From positions 78-64,077 of the forward strand of contig CAZKWX010000003.1 in NCBI GenBank assembly GCA_964556685.1: a stretch of DNA of 64,000 nt, given 5' to 3'. The DNA comes from an uncultured Bdellovibrionales bacterium. Lineage in GTDB: Bacteria; Patescibacteriota; Minisyncoccia; Moranbacterales; DUUL01. Shown one piece after another: positions 5,537 through 55,417 of the stretch. A model generated the notes under the pieces. It had not been told where the DNA came from and did no database searches. It saw only the letters and a program-made list of their open reading frames with translations. Numbering within the stretch: position 1 is the stretch's first letter; each line of letters opens with the position of its first letter. The translations under genes were made by a program, and so were the position numbers.

Positions 5537-5684
5537 TTATTTTTATTTTGCTTGTTCAGCGAGCTAAATAAAATGGTGTTAACCCCAGAGCAAGCTCTCG
5601 ACTCTTATTCCGCAGCAAGCTACAAGGAATTAAGCCAACAATTTGTCCTTCGTAGTCCCGACGTAACGTCGGGACGAAGTAGGA

Positions 5685-16463: not shown

Positions 16464-17513
16464 CTATTTTTCTATTTTCTCCCAAGGCAAGCCTTCTTCT
16501 CCAAAATGTCCATAGGTAGCCGTTTGAAGGAAAATTGGCTTTCGCAAGTCAAGCTTCTCAATAATCGCCAAAGGGGTGAAGTCATAATTCTCTCTGACAT
16601 ACTTAGACAGATCCTCTGCTCTTTCATTAATCGCTCTGATCATAACCGGTTGAGCTTTTCCAATAGAATAAGCCACAGCTACCAAGCACTCTTTGGCCAT
16701 TCCTTTGGCTACAATGTTTTTGGCCACAAATCTAGCCATATAGGCCGCTGAGCGGTCCACTTTGGTGGCATCTTTTCCTGAAAAACATCCTCCTCCGTGA
16801 GGAACTAGTCCGCCATAGGTGTCAACCATAATTTTTCTGCCAGTCAGTCCCGTGTCCGCTTCAAAACCTCCCAGAACAAAATTTCCTGTTTTGTTGATAA
16901 TCACTTCAACACCGGAGACATCTCCAATGATTGGCTTGATCAGTTTTTCCATCAGTTCTTTTTTAATTTCTTCCTGAGAAACATCTTCATCATGTTGAGT
17001 GCTGACCACAACAGTTTTCACATTACCATTGCACATAGTCACTTGGGATTTCCCATCTGGCATAAGCCAGGGAAGCGTTCCGTCGGTCCGCAATTTTTCC
17101 AAACCTTGAGTCAGTTTGTGCGCCAGCACTACTCCCTTAGGAAGATATTCTTTGGTCTCATCAGTAGCGTAACCATACATAATTCCTTGATCCCCTGCTC
17201 CACCAGTGTCTACTCCTTGAGAAATGTCGGGTGATTGCTGAACAATATTAGTTTCAATTTTTAGTTCTCCGTTGTGACCGATTTTGTCATAAATTTCTTG
17301 AGCAATTTTTTTCGCATCGATTTTAGCATTGGTGGTAAGTTCTCCTCCAATGACTAAAAGTCCATGGGCTCCCAAAACTTCCATGGCCACTCGACTTTTT
17401 GGATCTTGGCGCAAACATTCATCCAAAATGGCATCGGAAATTTGATCACAAATTTTGTCAGGGTGTCCTGACGTGACACTTTCGGCAGTGTACTCTCGAC
17501 AATCATAATGCAT
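16464..17513 (-). CDS. metK: S-adenosylmethionine synthetase
   Basis: 349 aa; GHPDKICDQISDAILD and GGGCFSGKDATKVDRSAAYMAR signature blocks. Confidence 0.95.
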   Translation of the reverse strand: MHYDCREYTAESVTSGHPDKICDQISDAILDECLRQDPKSRVAMEVLGAHGLLVIGGELTTNAKIDAKKIAQEIYDKIGHNGELKIETNIVQQSPDISQGVDTGGAGDQGIMYGYATDETKEYLPKGVVLAHKLTQGLEKLRTDGTLPWLMPDGKSQVTMCNGNVKTVVVSTQHDEDVSQEEIKKELMEKLIKPIIGDVSGVEVIINKTGNFVLGGFEADTGLTGRKIMVDTYGGLVPHGGGCFSGKDATKVDRSAAYMARFVAKNIVAKGMAKECLVAVAYSIGKAQPVMIRAINERAEDLSKYVRENYDFTPLAIIEKLDLRKPIFLQTATYGHFGEEGLPWEKIEK

Positions 17514-17533: not shown

Positions 17534-17670
17534 AAAAACTTTCCCAAAAGGAAAGCTTCATTCAGCATCTTTCCTCGAAAGGCTAGAGTTGGCACCTACT
17601 GAGATCAAACTCAGGGTTGCCGGCAGGTCATTGGGCTAGATCCCTATCTGCACTCTTGATGATATTTGGT
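17534..17670 (-). promoter_or_regulatory. SAM-I (S-box) riboswitch with intrinsic terminator in the metK leader
   Basis: Minus-strand ATCAAGAGTGCAGATAGGGATCTAGCCCAATGACCTGCCGGCAACC...GGTGCCAACTCTAGCC matches the S-box consensus; followed by GGAAAGATGCTGAATGAAGCTTTCC stem + UUUUGGG U-run just 5' of the metK ATG. Confidence 0.75.
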
Positions 17671-23244: not shown

Positions 23245-23375
23245 TAGTGTAAGGGGAGATTAAGAGGGGTTAGTTTTGATTGCAGAAGAGACCGGCCAAT
23301 TCACTTAACTCCCCCTGAATTCATTACTAATGAATTCAGCCCCCTCTTACCCTAAGAGGGGGAACAAATAAGATC
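23245..23375. repeat. G-tract palindromic dispersed repeat (copy B)
   Basis: Homologous to 9150-9310; contains perfect palindromes GAATTCATTA-c-TAATGAATTC and CCCCCTCTTA-ccc-TAAGAGGGGG. Confidence 0.55.
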
Positions 23376-28563: not shown

Positions 28564-31500
28564 TTATTTTGAATTATTTTTCCCTTCTTCCAGTCGTTCT
28601 TTTTTTTCTTCTGAGTCAATTTCTTTGACTATTCTGGCCACTTCATCATAAGAAGTCTCGCCTAACAAAACTCTCAAGATGCCATCTTGAGCCATGGTCA
28701 TCATTCCCTCTTCGATGGCCTCTTTTCTAATTTCGCTAGTAGTGGGATTCTTAGCCAAAAATGTTTCCATCTCCGGATTAATTTCAAGCATCTCAGCAAT
28801 AGGAATTCTTCCTTGATAGCCAATGTCGCTGCACTTTTCACAGCCCACTGGATCATATATCTTTTTAATTGGGGGTGTTTTTATTCCTGTTTTGGGAGAA
28901 AGCTCTTCGAGTGCTTCGTTGATCTCTTCTTTTTCTGAATCAGTTGGCCTTCTTCCTTTTCGACAATCAGGACAAAGTTTTCGCACCAACCTTTGAGCGA
29001 TGAAGCAATTGGTTCCAGCAATCATATCAGAAAGACTCAGTCCCATATTAACTAGGCGCTGAATTGATCCAGCCGCACTGTTGGTGTGCAAGGTGCTCAA
29101 AACCAAATGGCCAGTTAGAGCCGCTTGATAGGCCGCTTCGGCTGTGTCACCATCCCGAATTTCACCCACCATCATAATGTCAGGATTTTGTCGGAGCAAG
29201 GCCCTGATAGCTGTTGCAAAAGTGTAGTCTTCTTTTTCTTTAATTTGAGTTTGAATAATCCCATCCAGTTGATATTCGATTGGATCTTCAACGGTAATTA
29301 TTTTTGATTCAGGACTATTAAGATAGGTCAAAGCACTATAGAGAGTAGTTGTTTTTCCGCTGCCGGTTGGCCCAGTGTTGATGATGATTCCATTGGGCTT
29401 CTTGATGTTGCGTTTGAGTTTTTCCAAGTTGAGTGGATGCAAGTTTAATTTTTCAAGTTCAGTCGCCTGAGCTGCTTGGTTGAGCAAGCGCATCACGATA
29501 ATGTCTCCGAAGCCACCCAAAATGATCGAGACTCTCACGTCAATTCTTTTATCTTTGATTTCTTTCATGTCATCGGGAACACTAATTCTGAACCTTCCAT
29601 CAATCACCCCTTGTCTGATTTGAGTTTTGAATCCAGAAAGGTTTTTGATTTCATTCAAAACATTTAAAAATTCGGTCATCGGCAATCTCACAATATCATG
29701 TAAAATTCCGTCGATTCTGAATCGAACTTTAAAGTCATTTTCCCCTGGTTCAATGTGAATATCACCCGCTCTCATGAACAGCGCTGCCGAAAGAACATAC
29801 TTAATGATCTCACTCAGAGAAGCCTTCTGAAGTTTTGTTTCCAATTTTTCATAATCTTTGGATAGTTTTTTAGTTTTATCCATAATTTCTTTTTCAATCA
29901 TGACTCCTCTTGAAAGAGATTGAATGACAATCTTTTCATAGATTTTCATGAGATATTCTCCTGTTCCAACCACTCGTTGCAATTCTTCCAGTGATGTTGT
30001 TCCTTGGATAGATTTTAGAATTCCATCTTGTTCATAGGTGATCATGCCATTCTCCAACGAAGCAATTCTTAAATCATCTTCAGTGGCAATTTTTTCAATC
30101 AGGTTTCTAATGTCATCATTGATAGTCATAACTTCAAAAATTCCTGTTCTCCCTCGATAGCCCAGCCCTTGACACTTGTGACATCCTTTTGGCCGCCAAA
30201 GATATTCTACCTTTTTAGGGATTTCCACCTTTGATTTGGGAGAAATTAACGAGAGCATCTTTTTGAGAGTGGTGATTGTTTCTTCGGCCGGCACATATTT
30301 TTCTTTACAATGAAAACAAAGTTTTCGCACCAATCTCTGGGCAATAAGACAATTTACGGCCGAAGCAATCAGGGCGGGTTTGACTCCCAAGTCAATCATG
30401 CGGCCAACTACTCCCGCTGAGCTGTTTGAGTGGATAGTGGTTAACACTAAATGACCGGTCAAGGCTGCATGGATTGCAATTTCGGCTGTAGCTTCATCCC
30501 GAATTTCACCCACTAAAATAATATCTGGGTCTTGACGAACAATTGAGCGAAGGCCTTTTTCAAAAGTATAACCCTTTTCATCCTCTACTTGAGTTTGACT
30601 AACTCCTGAAACTTGATATTCCACTGGATCTTCAATGCTAATAACTTTTTTGTCGGGAGAATTTATTCGATTGATGATTGAATAGAGAGTAGTAGTTTTA
30701 CCGCTGCCGGTTGGTCCAGAGTTGATGATCATGCCTTGCTTTCTCTCTGATTCAGCTACTAGCCAATCATAACTCAACCCAGTCAATCCTGCTTTTTTGA
30801 GATCAAGTTCTTCGATGTCTTGACCCAACAGTCGAATCACAATATTTTCTCCGTGATTGCCAGGAAGCACTGAAACTCGAACATCAATTTCATCTCCCTT
30901 TTCTTCGTCAAGTTTGATGGAAAACCTTCCATCTTGAGCAACTTCTCTCACATTGACCATCATTTTGCTCAATATTTTTATTCGAGACAAAATTGTGGGA
31001 TAGATGTTGATGGAAAATTCCGCTACCGTCTGAAGCACCCCATCAATTCGGTAACGCAACCTGACTTTCTCGTCTTTTTCTGGTTCAAAGTGAATATCCG
31101 ATGCTCTGAGTTTCATCGCTCCAGCAAAAATCATATTCAGAACCTCAGTCACTGGGAGTTCGTTAATTCTTTTTTCCAAATCAATAACTCCTTCGAGATC
31201 TTTTTCGAACTCTTCCAGATCTCTCCCCTTCAGATTCATCCTCATATAGTCAAAGACCTCAGTTAGTCTAGTCTTTTTGTATTCGCCTAGCGCTGCTTCG
31301 AAAGAAGTTTTTGAAACTACAAATACTTCAACTTTATAGCCCTCTTTTTTCTCCAAATTTTCCAGATAGGTTTTAACTTCCTTAGGCTGCGGATTAACAG
31401 CAGCGACCTTGATGTCTTTTTCCTTCCGGTAGATGGCCATCAGATTTAACTTTTTGGCCTCTGTCTCAGGAACAACCCAAATGCTTTCCTGATCAATGGG

Positions 31501-31668
31501 AAAGATATTCAAATCTAAGTAGGGGTAGTTCAAGGACTTGGCAAATCGAGCCGCTTCTTCCTCCTCTGACTTCTGGCGAAGCGTTTTCAGCACTTTGCGA
31601 ACTTTTGTGGGATCGGCCATTCCTGGATTATGGATTTTTTTTGTTTTTTTATTTTCTTTTTTTGGCAT
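28564..31668 (-). CDS. pilB: Tandemly duplicated type IV pilus / type II secretion ATPase (PilB/GspE-GspE fusion)
   Basis: 1034 aa; two complete GspE N-terminal + ATPase cores, each with Walker A GPTGSGKTTTLYS, Asp/His boxes and a C-terminal tetracysteine zinc module (CFHC..CHKC and CPDC..CEKC). Confidence 0.85.
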   Translation of the reverse strand: MPKKENKKTKKIHNPGMADPTKVRKVLKTLRQKSEEEEAARFAKSLNYPYLDLNIFPIDQESIWVVPETEAKKLNLMAIYRKEKDIKVAAVNPQPKEVKTYLENLEKKEGYKVEVFVVSKTSFEAALGEYKKTRLTEVFDYMRMNLKGRDLEEFEKDLEGVIDLEKRINELPVTEVLNMIFAGAMKLRASDIHFEPEKDEKVRLRYRIDGVLQTVAEFSINIYPTILSRIKILSKMMVNVREVAQDGRFSIKLDEEKGDEIDVRVSVLPGNHGENIVIRLLGQDIEELDLKKAGLTGLSYDWLVAESERKQGMIINSGPTGSGKTTTLYSIINRINSPDKKVISIEDPVEYQVSGVSQTQVEDEKGYTFEKGLRSIVRQDPDIILVGEIRDEATAEIAIHAALTGHLVLTTIHSNSSAGVVGRMIDLGVKPALIASAVNCLIAQRLVRKLCFHCKEKYVPAEETITTLKKMLSLISPKSKVEIPKKVEYLWRPKGCHKCQGLGYRGRTGIFEVMTINDDIRNLIEKIATEDDLRIASLENGMITYEQDGILKSIQGTTSLEELQRVVGTGEYLMKIYEKIVIQSLSRGVMIEKEIMDKTKKLSKDYEKLETKLQKASLSEIIKYVLSAALFMRAGDIHIEPGENDFKVRFRIDGILHDIVRLPMTEFLNVLNEIKNLSGFKTQIRQGVIDGRFRISVPDDMKEIKDKRIDVRVSIILGGFGDIIVMRLLNQAAQATELEKLNLHPLNLEKLKRNIKKPNGIIINTGPTGSGKTTTLYSALTYLNSPESKIITVEDPIEYQLDGIIQTQIKEKEDYTFATAIRALLRQNPDIMMVGEIRDGDTAEAAYQAALTGHLVLSTLHTNSAAGSIQRLVNMGLSLSDMIAGTNCFIAQRLVRKLCPDCRKGRRPTDSEKEEINEALEELSPKTGIKTPPIKKIYDPVGCEKCSDIGYQGRIPIAEMLEINPEMETFLAKNPTTSEIRKEAIEEGMMTMAQDGILRVLLGETSYDEVARIVKEIDSEEKKERLEEGKNNSK

Positions 31669-31761
31669 TTTAGTAATATTTGAAGTAATTCACTTATGAT
31701 GAATCACTTTAATTATATCAATTTAAAAGGGGCTTGGAAACCCCTGTTTTTAGTCTATCTT

Positions 31762-32610
31762 TTAGTCTTCCGTTCTCTCTTTCAGCTCCTGCCATTTTTT
31801 GATCGAAAGATCTTCTGCTCTGACTTTTTCATCTAATTCAATGTCATTGAGTATTTTTTTAATTTCATTTTTTGGCTGGTATAGTCCGGCTGAAAGATTG
31901 TTCACTAGAGTTTTCCTCGGTGAAGCAAAACCAATTTTGACTAAATGGAAAAAGTCTTTATTTTGTTGAGGTTTCTTTTTAAATGGAATGATCTTCAAAA
32001 TTGCACTATCCACTTTTGGCACTGGTTCAAAGCTCTCTTTGGGAACACAATCAATAATTTCTGGCTTTCCAAAATATTGTACCGACACAGCCAAGATGCT
32101 CATATCTCCTGGCTGGGCGCAAATTCGTTCAGCCACTTCTTTTTGAATTAATAATACAATTAATTTTGGCATATACTCTGTCTCAAAAAGCAAACGAATT
32201 ATTTTTCCCGTTATATAGTACGGAATATTGGCTACTACTTTGTAGTCTTGGAAATTGTTTTTTTCTATTAACTCGGGAAGGGTCACCTCTAAGATATCTC
32301 CTATTACAACTTGCGAAATTTTATTATTGAAATTATTGATATTATTAATTTGGTTTTTAGGCTTTGGACTTGATTGATAATTGATAATTGATAATTGATA
32401 ATTGTGCGCAAGACTCCTTGCCAACTCTTCATCTTTCTCAATAGCTATCACTCTTCCTGCATATGCAACTAATTCCTTTGTCAGCGCTCCCTTCCCTGGT
32501 CCAATCTCAAGAACATTGTCCTTCTTTGACAATTCTGCCGCTTTCACTATTTTTCCTAAGGCTTTTTGATCAACCAACCAATTCTGCCCAAGATATTTTT
32601 TCGGTTTCAT
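31762..32610 (-). CDS. rsmA: 16S rRNA (adenine1518/1519-N6)-dimethyltransferase RsmA/KsgA
   Basis: 282 aa; KYLGQNWLVD..VLEIGPGKGALT SAM-binding motif; contains a low-complexity insert encoded by a 7-bp microsatellite. Confidence 0.9.
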   Translation of the reverse strand: MKPKKYLGQNWLVDQKALGKIVKAAELSKKDNVLEIGPGKGALTKELVAYAGRVIAIEKDEELARSLAHNYQLSIINYQSSPKPKNQINNINNFNNKISQVVIGDILEVTLPELIEKNNFQDYKVVANIPYYITGKIIRLLFETEYMPKLIVLLIQKEVAERICAQPGDMSILAVSVQYFGKPEIIDCVPKESFEPVPKVDSAILKIIPFKKKPQQNKDFFHLVKIGFASPRKTLVNNLSAGLYQPKNEIKKILNDIELDEKVRAEDLSIKKWQELKERTED

Positions 32611-32645
32611 TTTTATACATAATACTTAATACGTGATACATAATA

Positions 32646-33587
32646 CTATTCTAAAATCTCTTCCACTTTCACTTCAATCACCCCTTTCCCCAATGGAGCC
32701 AGTTTTTCGAAAGCCACTTTGTCTAAATCTATCATCTTTCCTGTTCCGCGCATAGGTCCAAAGTCATTAACTTGCACAAAAACTCGTTTGCCATTTTCTC
32801 GATTGGTCACTCGCAGCCAAGTTCCTCGCGGGAACATTCGGGAAGCGCAAGCCATGGTGCCGGCGTGGGTATACCAACTGGCCACTCCCACCTTGGTCTT
32901 GCCCACTTCCACTTTGGTGCCGATTCGCACAATTTCTTTCACTGGCTTTTTGAGCACTTTGGAAGAGAGTTCTTCTTTGGAAATTTTTTTGCCATTTTTA
33001 TAGGTAACTCGATAAGTTACTTCCTCTAAGCCTTTTTCACCTTCTTGTTTAACCTTTTTTCTTCTCCAGCGCAAATCATCATCTTCTTTCTCCACTGTTT
33101 TAAAATCGATCTTTTCTTCCGCCGTCACTTCTTCAATGTTAATTCGGGTTACCACAATCTCCATATCTTTTTGCAAAACCGTGTCTTTCCCTGGTTCCAC
33201 TTTGTCCAGATGACTCATCGTCACCCCGGTTCCAGCTAGCGCCCCGGAAACACTGGTGGCAAAAACATTTTTCTCAATTACTCTACGGTCCACTTCGATC
33301 ACGACCGGCATGGCTCGTTCAATTTCCACTGTCAATCCCGGTGTCACTCGAGCTGCCAATCCTGGATAGACTCGATCATCAGCTCCCAAGCTGATTCCCT
33401 GGCTTTCAATCAAGCTTTTTACGTTTTCAACACTTGAATTTATGTTGTAACGAAAGCCATTATCTACTAAAATAACATTTTTTTCTCCCGAAAAATTCAC
33501 CTGTCTCTTCCCAAACCAAAAAGCTCCCGCTCTGGCTCCCAGCAGAATCAAAACTAAAAGAAAAGTTATGAAAATCGCCCTTTTCAT
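32646..33587 (-). CDS. G5-domain and 3D/RlpA-like (DPBB) domain cell-wall protein (YabE/Rpf-like architecture)
   Basis: 313 aa; N-terminal TM; G5-like VTYRVTYKNGK; C-terminal GVASWYTHAGTMACASRMFPRGTWLRVTNRENGKRVFVQVNDFGP DPBB motif. Confidence 0.6.
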   Translation of the reverse strand: MKRAIFITFLLVLILLGARAGAFWFGKRQVNFSGEKNVILVDNGFRYNINSSVENVKSLIESQGISLGADDRVYPGLAARVTPGLTVEIERAMPVVIEVDRRVIEKNVFATSVSGALAGTGVTMSHLDKVEPGKDTVLQKDMEIVVTRINIEEVTAEEKIDFKTVEKEDDDLRWRRKKVKQEGEKGLEEVTYRVTYKNGKKISKEELSSKVLKKPVKEIVRIGTKVEVGKTKVGVASWYTHAGTMACASRMFPRGTWLRVTNRENGKRVFVQVNDFGPMRGTGKMIDLDKVAFEKLAPLGKGVIEVKVEEILE

Positions 33588-33624
33588 CGACGATGATTAT
33601 AGCATAAGTATTTTATCTGGGTAG

Positions 33625-33668
33625 GGCCAAAAAATAGTATATACTATGGTATATACTATTTTTTGGCC
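33625..33668. repeat. Perfect 19-bp inverted repeat GGCCAAAAAATAGTATATA-CTATGG-TATATACTATTTTTTGGCC
   Basis: Perfect palindrome upstream of the 32646..33587 gene; core AGTATATACTAT(A/G)GTATATAC recurs at 9044-9066. Confidence 0.6.
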
Positions 33669-33852
33669 GATAAAACTTGAGTGCTTCTTCATCGCAAATT
33701 TTCTCTTTTGATACTATTTAATTATCTACAAGCTAATGATAGACAATGAGGTATTAAAAAACAAGGTGAACACCTTGTTTTTATCTGAGCCGAGACCAGG
33801 AATTGAACTCGCCCCGCACCAATACTTTCTTATCGCTTAAAAATCAATAGAA

Positions 33853-33906
33853 TGGAGCCGAAGACCGGGCTTGAACCGATAACCTACCGCTTACAAGGCG
33901 GTTGCC
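33853..33906 (-). pseudogene. 3' two-thirds fragment of a second tRNA-Thr(UGU) (anticodon arm, T arm, acceptor 3' strand, encoded CCA)
   Basis: GCAACCGCCTTGTAAGCGGTAGGTTATCGGTTCAAGCCCGGTCTTCGGCTCCA; no matching 5' acceptor strand nearby; lies 17 nt downstream of the intact tRNA-Thr(UGU). Confidence 0.5.
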
Positions 33907-33923
33907 CCGCCTGCCTATGCCTG

Positions 33924-33996
33924 AGCCCACGGTCGGGCTTGAACCGACAACCTACCGCTTACAAGGCGGTTGCTCTACCAATTGAGCTACGTGGGC
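33924..33996 (-). tRNA. tRNA-Thr (anticodon UGU)
   Basis: GCCCACG/CGTGGGC acceptor, D arm GCTCAATTGGTAGAGC, anticodon stem ACCGC/GCGGT with loop CUUGUAA, T arm GTCGGTTCAAGCCCGAC, discriminator U. Confidence 0.8.
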
Positions 33997-34384
33997 TTAG
34001 GCGAAGGCGGGCAGGTCTACCATTGAGTCCCGATGTACCGCAAGGCGGTAATCGGGACCCCGACTTCACGTCAGGGCTATCTCGGCAAGAAGAATCAGCG
34101 TCTGCACTTCGTAAACCCCGCTCTTTAACATAAACATAAAGGACGGGACGAGATAGTGGGCCACCTCGAGACGAAACTCGAAGGATGGGAAAATTGCCAA
34201 AACGGCGAAGTAAGAACCAACTGAGAAAAAAGCGAAAGTAGATGATCAGAAAAATAATTCTTGGATAGAGTAACAGTAATTAATTCAATCCATCAATCTG
34301 TATTTGATCATATGAAATAAAAACTGTAAAGCTGCAATAAATATTGAATTTATTTTATAAAATAAGAATGTCGATATTATATTC

Positions 34385-34789
34385 CTAATCGCGTCCAGAC
34401 ACAACAATTACATATCCAGCTGGGTCTCTAAAAGAAAATTCGTATGACCCATAATCAGTTTCAATCGGACCGGTTTCAACAGAACATTCCTTTTCACGCA
34501 GCTTTTCTAAAAGAGCCTTTGCGTAAGTTACCGGTTTAATCCGCATGACCAAAGCAAAATTTGGCTTGCCAGTCTCATTCGACACTCCGGAAAGCTCTTT
34601 GCTTAGATAGTCCAACCGTTCAAACATGAGCCGCGATGTTCCAGAAGAAATCTCGGCCCAAAACGGAATACCGCGCTCATCCTTCTCAATTTCTAATAGC
34701 TTGCATCCAAGAATATCAACATAAAAGTCTAAGACACTTTGGATGTCTCCAACACCTAATTCAAGAACGAATTGTGTACTTTTTTTCAT
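34385..34789 (-). CDS. VOC/glyoxalase-fold family protein
   Basis: 134 aa; MKKSTQFVLELGVGDIQSVLDFYVDILGCKLLE...FRDPAGYVIVV; SD AGGAGG upstream; bracketed by ~30-bp direct repeats. Confidence 0.7.
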   Translation of the reverse strand: MKKSTQFVLELGVGDIQSVLDFYVDILGCKLLEIEKDERGIPFWAEISSGTSRLMFERLDYLSKELSGVSNETGKPNFALVMRIKPVTYAKALLEKLREKECSVETGPIETDYGSYEFSFRDPAGYVIVVSGRD

Positions 34790-34871
34790 TATTCGGCCTC
34801 CTTCTTAGTTACTAGGACACAAATTGAAAAAGCCAGACCTCAAGGATGGGAAGATTGCTAAAACGGCGATA

Positions 34872-34957
34872 TGGTGGGCCGGGAGAGATTCGAACTCCCG
34901 TAGGCTTGCGCCGCCAGATTTACAGTCTGGTGCATTTGACCGCTCTGCCACCGACCC
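34872..34957 (-). tRNA. tRNA-Tyr (anticodon GUA), long variable arm, CCA encoded
   Basis: GGGTCGGTGGCAGAGCGGTCAAATGCACCAGACTGTAAATCTGGCGGCGCAAGCCTACGGGAGTTCGAATCTCTCCCGGCCCACCA. Confidence 0.85.
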
Positions 34958-35139
34958 ATGATTTGTCGCTTTTAAATTAATTTATAACGATTTGGTAGTG
35001 CCTGCACTTCGTAGCCTTGGTGTTTATAGCACAGATCTTTGAATTCTCAATTATCTGCCCTACTTCGCTACCTACTTCGCTAAAGCTACGAAGGTCAAGA
35101 AAGCTTCGAAGGGCACTACTTCACCAAGGCGAAGTAGTG

Positions 35140-35422
35140 AGCCGTTGCGCGGGGTTGAACCGCGGACCTCATCCTTCATTTACACCTCTATTTTAATTAG
35201 CACGATATTAGAGGATTAGACTGTATCTTAGACTTATCCTGAAAACACTTAGGACTTAGTCTCTCTTGTCAGTCGTTCGGGCCCTACTACGATAGTGCCA
35301 CGGTCTTGACCTCGTACCAGGCTTTTAACCGTTATTCGAGATTCACATTACTGTTTCCAATTATGTGGGCATGGACTCTTCGTCCCACCATGGATGCGCT
35401 CTACCAACTGAGCTACAACGGC
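35140..35422 (-). tRNA. tRNA-Thr (anticodon GGU) interrupted in the anticodon loop by a ~210-nt group-I-like intron
   Basis: Exon1 GCCGTTGTAGCTCAGTTGGTAGAGCGCATCCATGGT and exon2 AAGGATGAGGTCCGCGGTTCAACCCCGCGCAACGGCT form a complete cloverleaf; split after U36 gives U-ending 5' exon and G-ending intron; R/S-like elements AGAGACUAAGUCC and AAGAUACAGUCUAAUC. Confidence 0.6.
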
Positions 35423-35581
35423 ATTGAAGCAAAACATCTCTTATGAACTTGAGTTGCTGCTGATAAACAAAAAATTTTAGGGCGGTTCTGAAGTATATAA
35501 TTCCAAATTCTAACACTTTGTAGTGGTTCCTGAAATTTTTTTGTGAAGCAGTAGCAATTCAAGTGAATATTAATTTTGTAT

Positions 35582-45792: not shown

Positions 45793-48700
45793 TCATTCTC
45801 CCCCTCCTTGTTTTTTAAGCCATACTGTTAATTGAATGTTATCAATTTTAATATCTTTATTAAAAATGTCTTCACTTGGCTTTTTTAAATAAATCTTTTC
45901 CGCCAGAACTTCCCTGGCAATTTCCTTTTCAAACTTCTGAAAAATATCCGACCCACCTTGATACCATAGTTCAATCCGATCGTCAACTTCAAATCCAGCT
46001 TCTTTGCGAGCACTCTGAATGTGCCGCACCAACTCTCTCATCTGACCTTCCAGTTGCAACTCTTCATCGATGTTGATATCTAGACCAACTTTCAGCTCCT
46101 TTTTATCCTTTTCTTTAGCACCATTAGCACTATATGCTTTCCACTTTAGATTTTTATCTTCCTTTTTAGTCAATTCAACACTTTTCACATTGACTTCATC
46201 TTCTATTAATCCAAGAAGCTCTTTTGTCAATTGACAATTGACAATTGACAATTTATCTAATGGTTGTCTCACTTTGATTCCGTTATCAGCTCTAAGCGAC
46301 AGTCCCAATTCAATAATTTTTCTGGTCATTTCCATGTTCTGGCTTAATTCTTCATCGATTAACTCGTCATTACTCTCTGAAAAATCAACCAGGTGAACTG
46401 ATTCATCCCCTGTCAAATTTCGATATATCTCATCAGCCACAAAAGGACAGAAGGGCGCTAACACTTTTGAAAACTCAGCCAGCACTGTCCAAAGTGTTTG
46501 ATAGGCATCTTCTTTGTCGCTATCATTTTCGCTCTTCCAAAATCTTCGACGTGATCGACGAATATACCAGTTGGAAAGATTGTTGATGAATCTATCGATT
46601 GGTTTAGTGGCAGTAACAATATCATATTTTTGCATATTTTCATCAACTGACTTGATCAGCTTGTGAAGTTCAGATAAAATCCACCGATCAAGTAAGTTTT
46701 CTCGATAGTGCACTTCATGAACATCCAGTTTTTCAGCTGACCACTTGTCCACTGATGCATAGAGAGTGAAAAATGAGTAGCTGTTCCAAAGAGTTCCCAG
46801 CACTCTTCTTTGAATGTCTTTGATGGTTGCTTCAGAAAAGCTCACATCTTGTCCATTGAGCAAGGGAGAAGAAAGCATATAGAATCTCAGCGCATCGGCC
46901 GAGTAGTTTTCCAGGATTTCATCTGGATCAGTGAAATTACCAAATGATTTTGACATTTTTCTTCCGTCTTCCCCGGCAATATTTCCTGTAACAATAACGT
47001 TTTTGAAGCTTTCTTTGTCAAAGACTCCCGTGGCCATCACATGAAGCACATAAAACCAAGCTCGCACTTGACCAACATATTCAGCAATGAAATCGGTGGG
47101 GAAGCTTTTTTCAAATTTTTCTTTATTTTCAAAAGGATAATGAAATTGAGCATAGGGCATGGAACCAGATTCCACCCAGCAATCTAAAACCTGAGGAATT
47201 CGCTTCATTGTTCCACCACATTTTTCGCAAGGAAAAGTCACTTCGTCAATATAGGGTCGATGGTAGTCATCTAGTTCAGCACCTGATAGTTTTTTCAACT
47301 CCTCATACGAGCCCACAACTTTTATATTCCCGCAACCATCACTATTGCTTGCACCATTTTTACCAGATTCCGGTTTCTGATTTACGGATTCCGAATGACA
47401 CTTCCAAACAGGCATAGCTGTTCCCCAATAACGATCTCGCGAAATGTTCCAATCAGGCGCCCCTTCAATTCCTTTTTTGAAACGACCTTCTTTAAAATGA
47501 GTTGGATGCCAGAATATTTTTTCGTTGTTTTTGATAAGTTTTTTTCTGATCTTGTCTATTGCCAAAAACCAAGCCGGTTGAGCTTTGTAGATCAGTTTGG
47601 CATGGCAGCGATGACAGTGGGGATATTTGTGAGTAAATTTTTCTTTTTTAAAAAGTATTCCTTCTTTCTCTAGCCACTCAACAATTTTGTCATTAGCTTC
47701 CCAGACTTTTTCTCCCTGCCACTTCCCTTCAGTCAATCTGCCTTCTTCATCAACAATTAGAGCTAGTGGTAAACCATTCTTTTTTCTAGCTTCAAAATCT
47801 TCTTCACCAAAGGCCGGCGCCGTGGAAACAATTCCTGTTCCATCTTCGCTGGTGACATAATCCTCACTAATCAGGACATAGGCTTTTTGTTCATCATCAG
47901 CAACTTCGCTTTGATGATAGACTGGTTTATAGTGAAGACCAATTAGATCAGTCCCCTTGAATTCCTGAATTATTTCATATTGATCTTCTTGCCCCAAAAC
48001 ATCTAAACGCTCTTTGGCTAAAACATATACTTCTTTTGATTCTAGGTGTTTGACCATTGTATAGGTCATTTTCTCGTTGATGGCCAAAGCAACATTGGCC
48101 AGGATCGTCCAGGGCACAGTTGTCCAAACAAGAAAGTAGGTTTTCTCGTCTTTGGCAAAACTGGCTTGAGATTCTTCGTCAGGGCTGGAGTCTAGTTCCA
48201 TTTTAACAAAAACTGCTGTGTCAGTGTCCTCTTCATAACTATTGTCCATGGCAATTTCAAAATTGGCTAAAGGCGTGGAGCAGCGTGGACAATAGAGCGA
48301 AATACGCACATCTTCATAGATCAGATCTTTTTCATAGAGCTCTTTGAAAGCCCACCAAACTGATTCCATGTAGGTTTTGTCCATGGTTTTATAGGCTCCT
48401 TTGAATTCCACCCAGCGGCCAATCCTATCCACTATTTTCTCCCAGTCGGAAGCGATTTTTGAAGTCATGGCAAAGCAAGTTTGGTTGAATTTCTCGATAC
48501 CCACCACTTTTTCAATTTCTTTTTTTGATTTGATTCCCAATTTTTTTTCCACCATGTTTTCAGCTGGCAGACCATGACAATCCCAACCCCAGCGTCTTTC
48601 CACCCGATAGCCTTTCATTGTCCAATAGCGCGGCATACAGTCTTTCACAATCGAAGAAAGCAAGGTGCCATGATGAGGCACGCCAGTAATAAACGGCGGT

Positions 48701-48837
48701 CCGTCATAGAAGCTATACATTTTGTCTTTGCTCCTTTGTTCGACAGATTTCTCAAAAGTTTGGTTTTCCTTCCAGAATTTAACCAAATCTTTTTCCATCT
48801 CGGAATATTTTCTTTTGGGATCTACTTTTTTGAACAT
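45793..48837 (-). CDS. ileS: Isoleucyl-tRNA synthetase
   Basis: 1014 aa; class I HIGH-like GVPHHGT and KMSKS (KMSKSFGN); zinc-binding Cys cluster; contains coding 7-bp microsatellite at 46226-46254. Confidence 0.95.
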   Translation of the reverse strand: MFKKVDPKRKYSEMEKDLVKFWKENQTFEKSVEQRSKDKMYSFYDGPPFITGVPHHGTLLSSIVKDCMPRYWTMKGYRVERRWGWDCHGLPAENMVEKKLGIKSKKEIEKVVGIEKFNQTCFAMTSKIASDWEKIVDRIGRWVEFKGAYKTMDKTYMESVWWAFKELYEKDLIYEDVRISLYCPRCSTPLANFEIAMDNSYEEDTDTAVFVKMELDSSPDEESQASFAKDEKTYFLVWTTVPWTILANVALAINEKMTYTMVKHLESKEVYVLAKERLDVLGQEDQYEIIQEFKGTDLIGLHYKPVYHQSEVADDEQKAYVLISEDYVTSEDGTGIVSTAPAFGEEDFEARKKNGLPLALIVDEEGRLTEGKWQGEKVWEANDKIVEWLEKEGILFKKEKFTHKYPHCHRCHAKLIYKAQPAWFLAIDKIRKKLIKNNEKIFWHPTHFKEGRFKKGIEGAPDWNISRDRYWGTAMPVWKCHSESVNQKPESGKNGASNSDGCGNIKVVGSYEELKKLSGAELDDYHRPYIDEVTFPCEKCGGTMKRIPQVLDCWVESGSMPYAQFHYPFENKEKFEKSFPTDFIAEYVGQVRAWFYVLHVMATGVFDKESFKNVIVTGNIAGEDGRKMSKSFGNFTDPDEILENYSADALRFYMLSSPLLNGQDVSFSEATIKDIQRRVLGTLWNSYSFFTLYASVDKWSAEKLDVHEVHYRENLLDRWILSELHKLIKSVDENMQKYDIVTATKPIDRFINNLSNWYIRRSRRRFWKSENDSDKEDAYQTLWTVLAEFSKVLAPFCPFVADEIYRNLTGDESVHLVDFSESNDELIDEELSQNMEMTRKIIELGLSLRADNGIKVRQPLDKLSIVNCQLTKELLGLIEDEVNVKSVELTKKEDKNLKWKAYSANGAKEKDKKELKVGLDINIDEELQLEGQMRELVRHIQSARKEAGFEVDDRIELWYQGGSDIFQKFEKEIAREVLAEKIYLKKPSEDIFNKDIKIDNIQLTVWLKKQGGGE

Positions 48838-48959: not shown

Positions 48960-49260
48960 TATAAAAAATCGCCCCAATATCTAAGGACGACTCATGGCCG
49001 TGGTACCACCTTGGTTTAGCTAGTAGTTAGTAGTTGGTAGTTTGTAGAAAAGGTATCCTAAAAACTATCAACTAAAAACTAAAAACTCTTGCTTACAGCT
49101 ATTACGGGCTTACCCGACGAGTTCTATTCTCCCGAGTACTCGAGATTTCTTCTCGCAGCTCCGAAGTGATTGCTCCATCATTGCTTTTGTAATTGTACTT
49201 CTTAATAATTAAATATTTTTCGTGATTTGTAAAGTCTTCTTGGCGTTGCTAAGAGATAAC
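48960..49260 (-). promoter_or_regulatory. T-box leader (tRNA-sensing riboswitch) with intrinsic terminator ahead of ileS
   Basis: Minus-strand AACCAAGGUGGUACCACGG (T-box consensus AAnnnGGGUGGnACCGCG) at 48998-49016, followed by terminator UCGUCC..GGGGCGA + U6 (48964-48990), upstream of the ileS ATG. Confidence 0.7.
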
Positions 49261-54005: not shown

Positions 54006-54917
54006 ATGTCAAAAATTCAGAATCTCATTACTGACTATCTCGAATATCTTGAAGTTGATCTCGGCCGATCCGAGAAGACTTTGGAAAATTATCATCGCTA
54101 TTTAAATAAATTTATTGAGTGGTCAAAGATCACCAGCTCTTCCCAAATCAATGAAAATTTGGTTCACAAATATCGGGTTCGTCTCAATCGAGTTCAAGAC
54201 AAAAGTGGCAAGAGTCTTTCTCGTCGAACTCAGAATTATCACATCATCGCTCTGCGAGGTTTTTTGAAATATCTTTCCAAAAAAGATATCAAATCTCTAG
54301 CGGCCGAAAAATTGGACTTAGCTAAAACTGAAGAACGGCAAGTTGATTTTCTCACTTTCGATGAAGTGAAAAGTCTCATTGAAGCAGCTGAAGGGACTAC
54401 TCAAATGAAGTTGCGTGATCAAGCTATTTTAAAGCTTTTTTTCTCTTCTGGTCTTCGAATTTCTGAATTAACAAGTCTCAATCGTGATCAAATCAATCTC
54501 AAAAGTGGTGAATTTTCTGTTCGTGGCAAAGGCTCAAAAGTGAGAATCGTCTTTGTTTCTGATGTGGCTCGCGATGCTATTCGCAAATATTTCGATAAGC
54601 GCACTGATGTGGACCAAGCCCTCTTTGTTCGAGTGATGAAAAATCCTGAAAAAGAATCTGACCTGCGCTTAAGTGCTCGGAGTGTCCAAAGAATGATCAA
54701 AAAATATGCTGCCAAGGCTGGCATCGTCAAAAAAGTCACTCCTCACGTTCTGCGCCACAGCTTCGCCACTGACCTGCTTCAGAACGGTGCCGACATTCGT
54801 TCCGTTCAAGCCCTCTTGGGCCACAGCTCAATCAACACCACTCAGATCTATACTCATGTGACCAACAAAGATCTCAAAGAAGTGCACCGAAAGTTTCATG
54901 GAAAGGAGAGGAGGTAA
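54006..54917 (+). CDS. xerC: Tyrosine site-specific recombinase XerC/XerD-like
   Basis: 303 aa; RHSFATDLLQNGADIRSVQALLGHSSINTTQIYTHV C-terminal catalytic block (R..HxxR..Y). Confidence 0.85.
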   Translation: MSKIQNLITDYLEYLEVDLGRSEKTLENYHRYLNKFIEWSKITSSSQINENLVHKYRVRLNRVQDKSGKSLSRRTQNYHIIALRGFLKYLSKKDIKSLAAEKLDLAKTEERQVDFLTFDEVKSLIEAAEGTTQMKLRDQAILKLFFSSGLRISELTSLNRDQINLKSGEFSVRGKGSKVRIVFVSDVARDAIRKYFDKRTDVDQALFVRVMKNPEKESDLRLSARSVQRMIKKYAAKAGIVKKVTPHVLRHSFATDLLQNGADIRSVQALLGHSSINTTQIYTHVTNKDLKEVHRKFHGKERR

Positions 54918-55156
54918 TCTGGAAATGGGAAACTGGAATCTGTACAGAAAAGGCTTCACCACGAGTACTCACAGTGAAACTTCTATAAAATAGTATAGCA
55001 ACTTAGAAAAATCCGATCGTAGTCTCCAATGCTTGCTATAATGATCATTTCAGATTAATATAATACAGTTACATTTCAGGCTCGTAGCTCCTACCTACGC
55101 TCTCGTTACTCGAGCTACGGTGGGCAGGCAGGTGGCAAACAATTTTGATAAATTAG

Positions 55157-55230
55157 GGACGATTAGCTCAGGTGGTTAGAGCGTTCGCTTGACATGCGAG
55201 AGGTCGGAGGTTCAAGTCCTCCATCGTCCA
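55157..55230 (+). tRNA. tRNA-Val (anticodon GAC)
   Basis: GGACGAT/ATCGTCC acceptor, D arm GCTCAGGTGGTTAGAGC, anticodon stem-loop TTCGC-TTGACAT-GCGAG, T arm GGAGGTTCAAGTCCTCC, discriminator A. Confidence 0.85.
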
Positions 55231-55417
55231 CAAGGAAGTCAGAGATTTTAACAATTTGTCTCCGACGTTACGTTGGAGCAACAAATCGAAATCCGCTCTT
55301 GGCGGGCAAGTCCCCTCGAGCCCACAAGATAAAAGGCGTCTCTAGCGCTTTTTTAGTTTTTTCTGTTTTACTTTCCTCTTTTTTGATGTTACATTTGGAA
55401 TACCTAAAGTAAAAAAT

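Follow-up and report, generated by a model that had tools for sequence, protein, structure and literature searches.

How did an intact tRNA-Thr(UGU) gene come to lie among several pieces of other tRNA-Thr genes, at the distal end of a tRNA operon in the 64,000-nt window analysed here (contig CAZKWX010000003.1; all positions are those of this whole stretch)? An earlier inspection of the letters, called here the sequence-only reading, had seen in these pieces the footprints of repeated tRNA-targeted integration. At its distal end, the Thr(GGU)-Tyr-Thr(UGU) operon of this small-genome Patescibacteria bacterium has become a graveyard of tRNA-Thr(UGU) genes (34086-33786), in which the working gene lies within what is left of at least two older ones. 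We propose, with a probability of about one half, that it results from serial whole-gene replacement, in which tRNA-bearing DNA would have inserted into the resident gene and the dispensable remainder would then have been deleted.

The intact tRNA-Thr(UGU), referred to as allele C, lies at 33923/4-33996 on the minus strand and is detected by ARAGORN, by the Rfam tRNA model (73.9 bits) and by nhmmer with a tRNA-Thr hidden Markov model (HMM) trained on 113 genes (72 bits). Its acceptor stem is GCCCACG/CGTGGGC, it has no encoded CCA, and it is presumably the functional gene. Seventeen nt downstream lies the 3' fragment B (33905-33853, minus strand, GCAACCGCCTTGTAAGCGGTAGGTTATCGGTTCAAGCCCGGTCTTCGGCTCCA), whose 53 nt correspond to tRNA positions 24-76 of a different tRNA-Thr(UGU) allele. 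It matches HMM positions 17/24-74 (44 bits, E 4e-15), with a Smith-Waterman score of 77 and 26.6 bits against the Rfam tRNA model. The fragment of another allele reported by the sequence-only reading at this distance is therefore present, and alignment to C bears out its description as having the same anticodon arm, another T stem and another acceptor strand. The 25-nt anticodon-arm block that is identical in B and C is itself uninformative, being unchanged in tRNA-Thr(UGU) genes from many phyla in a metagenome scan. The T stem is ATCGG/CCGGT in B and GTCGG/CCGAC in C, that is, a both-sided change from G49-C65 to A49-U65, and the acceptor strand is CTTCGGC, followed by an encoded CCA, in B and CGTGGGC in C. 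Because of this both-sided change and of the different acceptor, B is not a random decay product of C.

Ten nt beyond B lies the 3' relic A (33786-33842, minus strand), in which positions 33-44 of a tRNA-Thr (TTTTAAGCGATA, 33842-33831) are followed by a 19-nt unrelated gap and by positions 49-76 (CGAGTTCAATTCCTGGTCTCGGCTCA, 33811-33786). The latter segment matches HMM positions 50-74 with 7.4 bits and an E value of 1e-3 in a 601-nt search, which is weak taken alone, and is identical at 22 of 26 positions to the 3' end of an allele A that is intact in L112 (L-numbers are the labels of the compared loci, assemblies or genomes). Furthermore, relic A shares exact 9-mers with the alleles of L134 and L112, such as TAAGCGATA in its first segment, a 9-mer identical to the L134 allele. 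The T-arm/acceptor remnant noticed earlier at the outer end of the region is thus real and reaches further 5', to 33842. Its T stem is broken, its acceptor strand reads TCTCGGC followed by TCA, and 3 nt further begins the intrinsic terminator that closes the operon, a hairpin with a T run (33757-33782, minus strand) recognised by direct reading and as a 12-bp perfect inverted repeat, I8. All the pieces are collinear on the minus strand, separated by gaps of 17 and 10 nt, in agreement with the stacked, directly oriented 3' pieces described before, and both HMM and allele alignments place the fragments on tRNA 3' halves. In addition, the 9-mers common to tRNA-Thr alleles are clustered at this locus and only scattered singly elsewhere in the 64 kb. 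These tRNA-Thr 3' pieces are genuine, far beyond chance.

The region also contains 5' pieces, which had been missed. Upstream of C are found, in this order, GCCGAGATAGC, an insertion with two hairpins, CTCAATGGTAGACCTGCCCGCCTT, seven nt, and then C. The first of these, 5' relic A (34076-34086, minus strand), covers positions 1-11 of an allele that L134 and L112 carry intact (Smith-Waterman score 22; three exact 9-mers). The second relic covers tRNA-Thr positions 11-34 (34027-34004), scores 26 by Smith-Waterman against a null 95th percentile of 19, and contains a run of four exact 9-mers; with the 7-nt junction CGCCTAA it occupies 33997-34027 (minus strand) and forms the 5' arm of an inverted repeat. 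Between the two relics, after TAGC, the 48-nt insertion (34028-34076, minus strand) folds into two GC-rich hairpins, hp1 (CCCTGAC-GTGAA-GTCGGGG) and hp2 (TCCCGAT...ATCGGGA), the loop of the latter containing ACCGCCTTGCGGT, which is the Thr anticodon arm without TAAG; homologous hairpins are found at the same place in L134. The inverted repeat, I2, is imperfect and embraces C: its arms (33900-33931 and 33990-34021) are 32 nt long and 78% complementary, 7 bp being C's own acceptor stem, and its 3' arm includes the 17-nt spacer AGGCATAGGCAGGCGGG (33906-33922, minus strand) that separates C from B. The flanking-helix score of C is in about the top 2% among 562 tRNAs.

The acceptor strand GCCGAGA of 5' relic A pairs at 7/7 positions with the TCTCGGC of 3' relic A (33795-33789) and clashes with C, and the outer ends of the whole region are paired in minimum-free-energy and centroid folds alike. 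The breakpoints are also complementary in the anticodon loop, as the 5' relic stops at position 34 and the 3' relic A begins at position 33. As to the earlier remark that B has no matching 5' strand, GCCGAAG, the 5' acceptor strand expected for B, was not seen when 33500-35500 was read by eye, no pattern search having been run. GCCGAGA in the overlooked 5' relics pairs with B at 6/7 positions. On the simplest reading, the anticodon loop was the point at which an A-type resident gene broke, and C and B now lie inside that gene. A second parse is possible, in which the D-arm piece ending in GGTAGA and B, beginning with GCAACC, make up one contiguous tRNA, with anticodon strands CCGCC/GCGGT and an A/B acceptor paired at 6/7 positions; in that case C would have split a formerly functional A/B hybrid at position 22/23, leaving B as its 3' half, and relic A would be a 3' end displaced still earlier. 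Under either parse C remains nested within an older gene. Two other identities were considered for the region and rejected: a transfer-messenger RNA, as none was found by ARAGORN or Rfam and the acceptor has no G3-U70, and GOLLD or ROOL RNAs, which can contain tRNAs and neither of which gave an Rfam match.

The same operon was then compared in relatives, recovered through homologues of the PSP1/RicT protein encoded on the other flank (six lineages); L112 was added by a metagenome scan with the 25-nt block. These relatives are distant, the nearest having 60-68% identity in PSP1. Synteny searched from the downstream G5-domain protein gave homologues at 55-61% identity with other genes upstream and no tRNA cluster. 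In L139 and L141-144 the operon is compact, with Thr(GGU), Tyr, 12-36 nt, Thr(UGU) and the terminator, and no fragments. In L134 and L112, the tRNA-Thr(UGU) that occupies this place in the operon is an intact allele A (GCCGAGA...TCTCGGCTCA), and the intact genes of relatives abut the terminator, as relic A does in the window. Other relatives carry fragments of their own. L134 (9186-9452) has a 5' relic homologous to that of the window, two hairpins included, then intact allele A, then a 5'-truncated copy with a C-like 3' end (CCCGACCATGGGCTCC), which is chimeric with its junction in the T loop; its relics also contain an internal duplication of a D-loop segment. The two loci are thus reciprocal, with C-like ends around A in L134 and A around C in the window. 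L136 (2205-2364) has a tRNA-Tyr copy truncated at its 5' end and a 5' fragment of tRNA-Thr covering positions 1-35 (26 bits); 16 nt downstream of this fragment follows an intact gene, whose acceptor stem is different. L137 (7022-7441) has 5' fragments of tRNA-Tyr (about positions 1-13) and of tRNA-Thr (1-12), each about 100 nt upstream of the intact gene. Finally, in L112 (1160-1480) the tRNA-Thr(GGU) is intronless and precedes a tandem array of three units, each about 120 nt long. Every unit closes with a 3' half (positions 37-76) whose T loop contains an inserted 21-nt hairpin and whose acceptor strand is identical to that of the intact tRNA-Thr(GGU).

As relatives are either clean or provided with different fragments, the fragments are lineage-specific and recurrent in the clade, and not an inherited tandem arrangement. 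The description of the locus as a recombination hotspot is supported by this variability. An ancestral tandem duplication shared by relatives, the case that the sequence-only reading had set against its own proposal, is not what was found, the arrangement differing in every relative examined and being absent from several. Nor do the copies look like pseudogenised descendants of the neighbouring gene, considering the changes in B and the fact that A is a functional allele in L134 and L112. Synteny also changes exactly at the end of the cluster, where the window has G5, KsgA and PilB and the relatives have RNase J and PGI. Among 120 tRNA-Thr loci from diverse bacteria (763 kb), a background set that came from the same metagenome scan, matches to the tRNA-Thr HMM of less than full length were mostly cross-hits to other tRNAs or truncations at contig edges, the rest being a few shorter non-edge matches unlike cross-hits (L051, L113, L037, L083). 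A generic scan for orphan acceptor pairs did no better than controls.

A locus of similar architecture was met by chance in L007, a Doudnabacteria metagenome-assembled genome (JBDTSL010000001.1, 7781-7979) and one of two GTDB genomes that matched a T-arm pattern. Here, a complete tRNA-Thr(CGU), flanked by inverted repeats of 14-16 nt that are cleaner than those of the window, interrupts another tRNA-Thr(CGU) at the anticodon loop. TAAA is present on both sides of the insertion, whereas a target-site duplication is ambiguous in the window. No integrase was found within 5 kb downstream. L007 would show the uneroded state of a nested tRNA insertion. A -10-like TATAAT lies directly upstream of its outer 5' half.

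The sequence of events that would best account for these arrangements is the following. The resident, single-copy tRNA-Thr(UGU) would have been broken at least twice by incoming DNA bearing its own complete tRNA-Thr(UGU). The incoming copy would have taken over the essential function, leaving the broken halves free to decay, and the dispensable inserted DNA would have been deleted, as expected for a streamlined genome. The 5' acceptor strand of C is compatible with neither B nor A, which requires replacement of the whole gene rather than of its 3' end. Two routes of insertion are plausible: a recombinase supplied in trans may have acted site-specifically on the anticodon loop or the D region, or homology-facilitated illegitimate recombination may have occurred, in which taken-up foreign DNA would be anchored on the conserved tRNA body. 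What can be read directly from the sequences is which pieces are there, in what order, how they complement one another, with which intact alleles of relatives they agree and how they vary among lineages; that they arose by insertion in preference to local duplication, and in what manner, is what we infer. Foreign input at this operon is supported by a glyoxalase open reading frame (ORF) and a 210-nt insert, both described below, and by the change of synteny at the end of the cluster.

Several points weigh against serial replacement. The insertion step itself is deduced from its presumed products, as neither a donor element nor an integrase or transposase was found, and the relatives are too distant to provide a pair of states before and after an event. 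The pieces can be parsed in more than one way, as the anticodon strand CCGCC of the 5' relic fits B (GCGGT) better than relic A (GCGAT), and as positions 24-34 occur both in the 5' relic and in B. The reciprocal arrangement of L134 sits uneasily with a simple linear history and would also be compatible with gene conversion between tandem copies. Finally, the 5' relic with its hairpins is over-conserved between the window and L134 for neutral DNA, one block being identical at 25 of 28 positions, with stem changes that keep pairing, whereas coding DNA is only about 69% identical; this hints at a function or a mobility that serial replacement does not need.

If nested replacement is true, essential single-copy tRNA genes of ultra-small genomes turn over by whole-gene substitution and not by point mutation, and tRNA operons would be entry points for foreign DNA, here the glyoxalase gene and the intron-like insert, even without a visible integrase. 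On the practical side, such relics are liable to be miscalled as tRNA genes or pseudogenes, break metagenome assemblies and mark synteny breakpoints.

Among the alternatives, the one closest to the sequence-only reading is that successive tRNA-targeting integrative elements displaced the 3' ends of the gene and were then deleted, leaving stacked fragments of the attR type. tRNA gene fragments are reportedly left by the integration of mobile elements, and the anticodon loop is said to be, with the T loop and the 3' end, a classical sublocation of integrase crossover. The window recalls such attL/attR scars in that partial copies lie in direct orientation beside an intact tRNA and vary among lineages, with one breakpoint in the anticodon loop: relic A begins there, at position 33, and abuts the original terminator, while B begins at position 24, in the D stem/position 26 region. 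The presence/absence polymorphism expected of att repeats is also found among the relatives. Since the A/B hybrid acceptor pairs at 6/7 positions, one canonical event is possible, in which A would have been displaced by a B-type attP, and the L112 array of three 3' halves, with the acceptor strand of the intact tRNA-Thr(GGU), looks canonical too. Fragments produced by element integration are, moreover, common (van der Gulik et al. 2023, PMC9897764). The scars differ, however, in what surrounds them and in what they are made of. Gaps of 17 and 10 nt leave no element between the pieces, and no integrase is adjacent, as had been noted before: of the 29 window ORFs scanned with Pfam (16-54 kb), the only tyrosine recombinase is an Xer-like enzyme (54006-54917), 20 kb away. 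The pieces come from different alleles, and the acceptor strands of B and A (CTTCGGC and TCTCGGC) each have two non-pairing positions with the GCCCACG of C, the T stems differing too. Moreover, the arrangement is nested, and the 5' fragments found upstream in the window, L134, L136 and L137 are not produced by 3'-end integration. Viral contigs, when scanned, contained no match to relic A, to hairpin hp1 or to the 3' end of either B or C. Of the original proposal, the genuine 3' pieces in direct orientation and the hotspot are retained, and relic A, with its start in the anticodon loop beside the terminator, looks as a displaced original 3' end should; the attL/attR interpretation is not retained, and we consider integrase scars as such unlikely.

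Two other kinds of known scars resemble the locus in part. At a single tRNA att site of Streptococcus thermophilus, integrative elements and integrase-less cis-mobilizable elements (CIMEs) accrete in tandem, as in the ICESt1/CIME system. The window has in common with it several att-like tRNA fragments stacked at one site, with the intervening elements decayed and no recombinase, but its intervals are of 10-17 nt and not of kilobases, and its repeats are not copies of one att sequence. In plastids, tRNA pseudogene fragments mark the endpoints of rearrangements, and homology-facilitated illegitimate recombination anchors on conserved sequence. The likeness here is that of partial tRNA copies at breakpoints without integrase, at a place where synteny also breaks exactly at the end of the cluster; the differences are a bacterial chromosome, a replacement that is a complete, different allele, and recurrence in many lineages of one clade. 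The feature is thus an unusual form of a known tRNA scar and not a new machine, departing from it in the absence of an element, the allele mismatch and the nesting.

A purely local origin has to be weighed as well, in which slippage, template switching or unequal crossing-over at hairpin-rich, highly transcribed tRNA genes, followed by decay and gene conversion, would have produced everything without foreign DNA. All that is seen is short-range, short tandem repeats are frequent in the spacers, and the L112 array is a plain tandem repeat of about 120 nt. The duplicated D-loop segment of L134, its chimeric downstream copy with a junction in the T loop and a 34-nt duplication inside a tRNA of L093 are all of a kind with such a process. 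On the other hand, three different acceptor stems coexist at one locus, one of them being the functional allele of other genomes, and B has changed on both sides of its T stem. Furthermore, the nested order, the complementary breakpoints, the 7/7 acceptor match and a foreign ORF in the same operon are poorly explained by local events, an explanation that we find doubtful.

One speculative possibility goes further than serial replacement and postulates that, in Patescibacteria, a complete-tRNA cassette bounded by short inverted repeats inserts into the anticodon loop or D region of its cognate tRNA gene, perhaps with hairpin loops as targets, and replaces that gene. By destroying the resident copy, the insertion would make the cassette indispensable. 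L007 would then represent a fresh insertion, and the window an older one stacked on earlier events. In L134, hairpins with loops of 4-6 nt are found exactly where the window hairpins enclose tRNA-derived sequence, one window loop being the anticodon arm and the other "loop" the whole of C; these short loops could be empty footprints, and the conserved upstream hairpin block could belong to the recombination site. Compared with an insertion of the miniature inverted-repeat transposable element or insertion sequence type, the C cassette has arms of 32 nt at 78%, with 7 bp being the acceptor stem, while the L007 arms are 14-16 nt long and cleaner. A pattern search confined to hp1 and to the 28-nt repeat D4 (described below), and not extended to the inverted-repeat arms around C, found one hp1 copy in L134 and no second one in the window, and for D4 just its two window copies. 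Such a cassette is at present rather improbable.

The hairpin hp1 belongs to a small family, YCCCGAC-GTNAM-GTCGGGR, found at 5655-5675, 34058-34076 and 55260-55278 of the window and at 9200-9218 of L134, with about 0.02 copies expected by chance. These hairpins may be elements similar to repetitive extragenic palindromes. Two of the three window copies adjoin tRNA genes.

The conservation of the hairpin block raises a different question, namely whether the region could be a functional composite RNA, whose outer halves, hairpins and inverted repeat would act as a processing scaffold or split tRNA-like RNA, the inner tRNA being released by RNase P and RNase Z. The region does fold better than shuffled sequences (z = -4.8) with its outer acceptor strands paired, the inner tRNA is bracketed by a helix in the window as in L007, and the hp1/hp2 block is kept with pair-preserving changes. 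A canonical cloverleaf is, however, not restored by the outer halves: the acceptor pairs at 7/7 positions, but the T stem, GCGAG/CCTGG, forms 3/5 pairs and is broken in L134 as well, and the D stem is interrupted by 48 nt. In addition, the arrangement is different in every relative and absent from several, neither the relics nor the hairpins match an Rfam family, and the covariation is drawn from a sample of two sequences only. Only in geometry is the locus reminiscent of the archaeal split and intron-containing tRNA genes of Nanoarchaeum and Caldivirga (PMC3218864), with halves separated at the anticodon loop and complementary sequence at the break, most clearly in L007. The window differs in that its halves are decayed and that a complete isoacceptor gene between them makes them dispensable. 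A functional composite RNA is thus very unlikely.

The public contigs of the same species (Logan assemblies, five sequencing runs) all stop in or beside the tRNA cluster, at 33980, 34445 or 35076-35090, and repeats or strain heterogeneity at the cluster appear to break assemblies. Such breaks could suggest that reads of co-existing strains with different tRNA-Thr alleles were mis-joined, but this artefact is highly improbable, because the independent assembly L002, from another sample (SRR29008691), is 100% identical over 30820-34445, every fragment junction included, because L001 is 99.99% identical as far as 33980, and because analogous fragments occur in relatives from unrelated projects.

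The operon that ends with this region reads, on the minus strand, from an interrupted tRNA-Thr(GGU) to tRNA-Tyr, a glyoxalase ORF, the tRNA-Thr(UGU) region and the terminator; the genome is a Patescibacteria (CPR) one of the Moranbacteria type, and the best matches of the flanking proteins are in Patescibacteria and Moranbacteria metagenome-assembled genomes, at 55-69% identity. The middle gene, tRNA-Tyr(GUA) (34872-34957, minus strand), is detected by ARAGORN and Rfam. Between it and the tRNA-Thr relics, the segment 34181-34869 (minus strand) carries the ORF of a glyoxalase/VOC protein (34385-34789, Pfam PF00903), flanked by the 28-nt direct repeat D4 (34842-34869 and 34181-34208), whose copies are identical at 26 of 28 positions, none being expected by chance. 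This ORF is not found at this position in any relative and has three homologues only, at E<=1e-10, among 5.8 billion proteins; the closest, at 60% identity, comes last in a methyltransferase operon on a GC-rich contig, L145. The ORF is probably acquired cargo. Its GC content is ordinary, so that its acquisition cannot be dated from composition.

The first gene of the operon, tRNA-Thr(GGU) (35137-35422, minus strand), carries between its positions 36 and 37 a 210-nt insert (35177-35386), as indicated by separate nhmmer matches to halves 1-36 and 37-74. The junctions read ...CATGGT|GGGACG...AAATG|AAGGATG, the insert thus following a U and ending in G, and it is 100% identical in three independent assemblies. 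The gene is intronless in L112, which has the same allele, and in L134, L136, L137, L139 and L141. Group I introns are found in the anticodon loop of bacterial tRNA-Leu(UAA), tRNA-fMet, tRNA-Ile(CAU) and tRNA-Arg(CCU); we know of no report of tRNA-Thr(GGU) as a host. The insert is similar to them in its position in the anticodon loop, the preceding U, the 3' G and the intronless relatives, and its motifs GAGAGACUAAG and AAGAUACAGUC resemble the R and S core elements of group I introns. Unlike them, it matches none of the intron models of Rfam at E<=10, not even in a search narrowed to 226 nt. The spacer that separates this gene from tRNA-Tyr (34958-35139) is rich in repeats, as had been pointed out before, with repeats D3 and I17.

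At the other side of the window, the Xer-like recombinase lies 240 nt upstream of a tRNA-Val(GAC), whose flanks (55079-55327) contain GGCTCGTAGCTC and ...CCCCTCGAGCCCA, resembling halves of another old tRNA. A second nested case was considered around this gene and rejected, no tRNA-like sub-threshold match being found in 55079-55327.

Some minor observations can be added. In L093 (1040-1110), the 34-nt internal tandem duplication affects the variable arm and T arm of a tRNA-Leu(UAG), a gene whose flanks are strongly complementary in about ten related loci. In the window, a near-threshold match to the Whalefall-1 RNA is found at 23306-23365 on the minus strand (33.6 bits, with a gathering score of 37). 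Two ordinary leaders are also present on the minus strand: a sub-threshold T-box leader (51 bits, 48980-49190) upstream of the IleRS gene (45793-48837), and a SAM-I riboswitch (17562-17665) upstream of metK (16464-17513).

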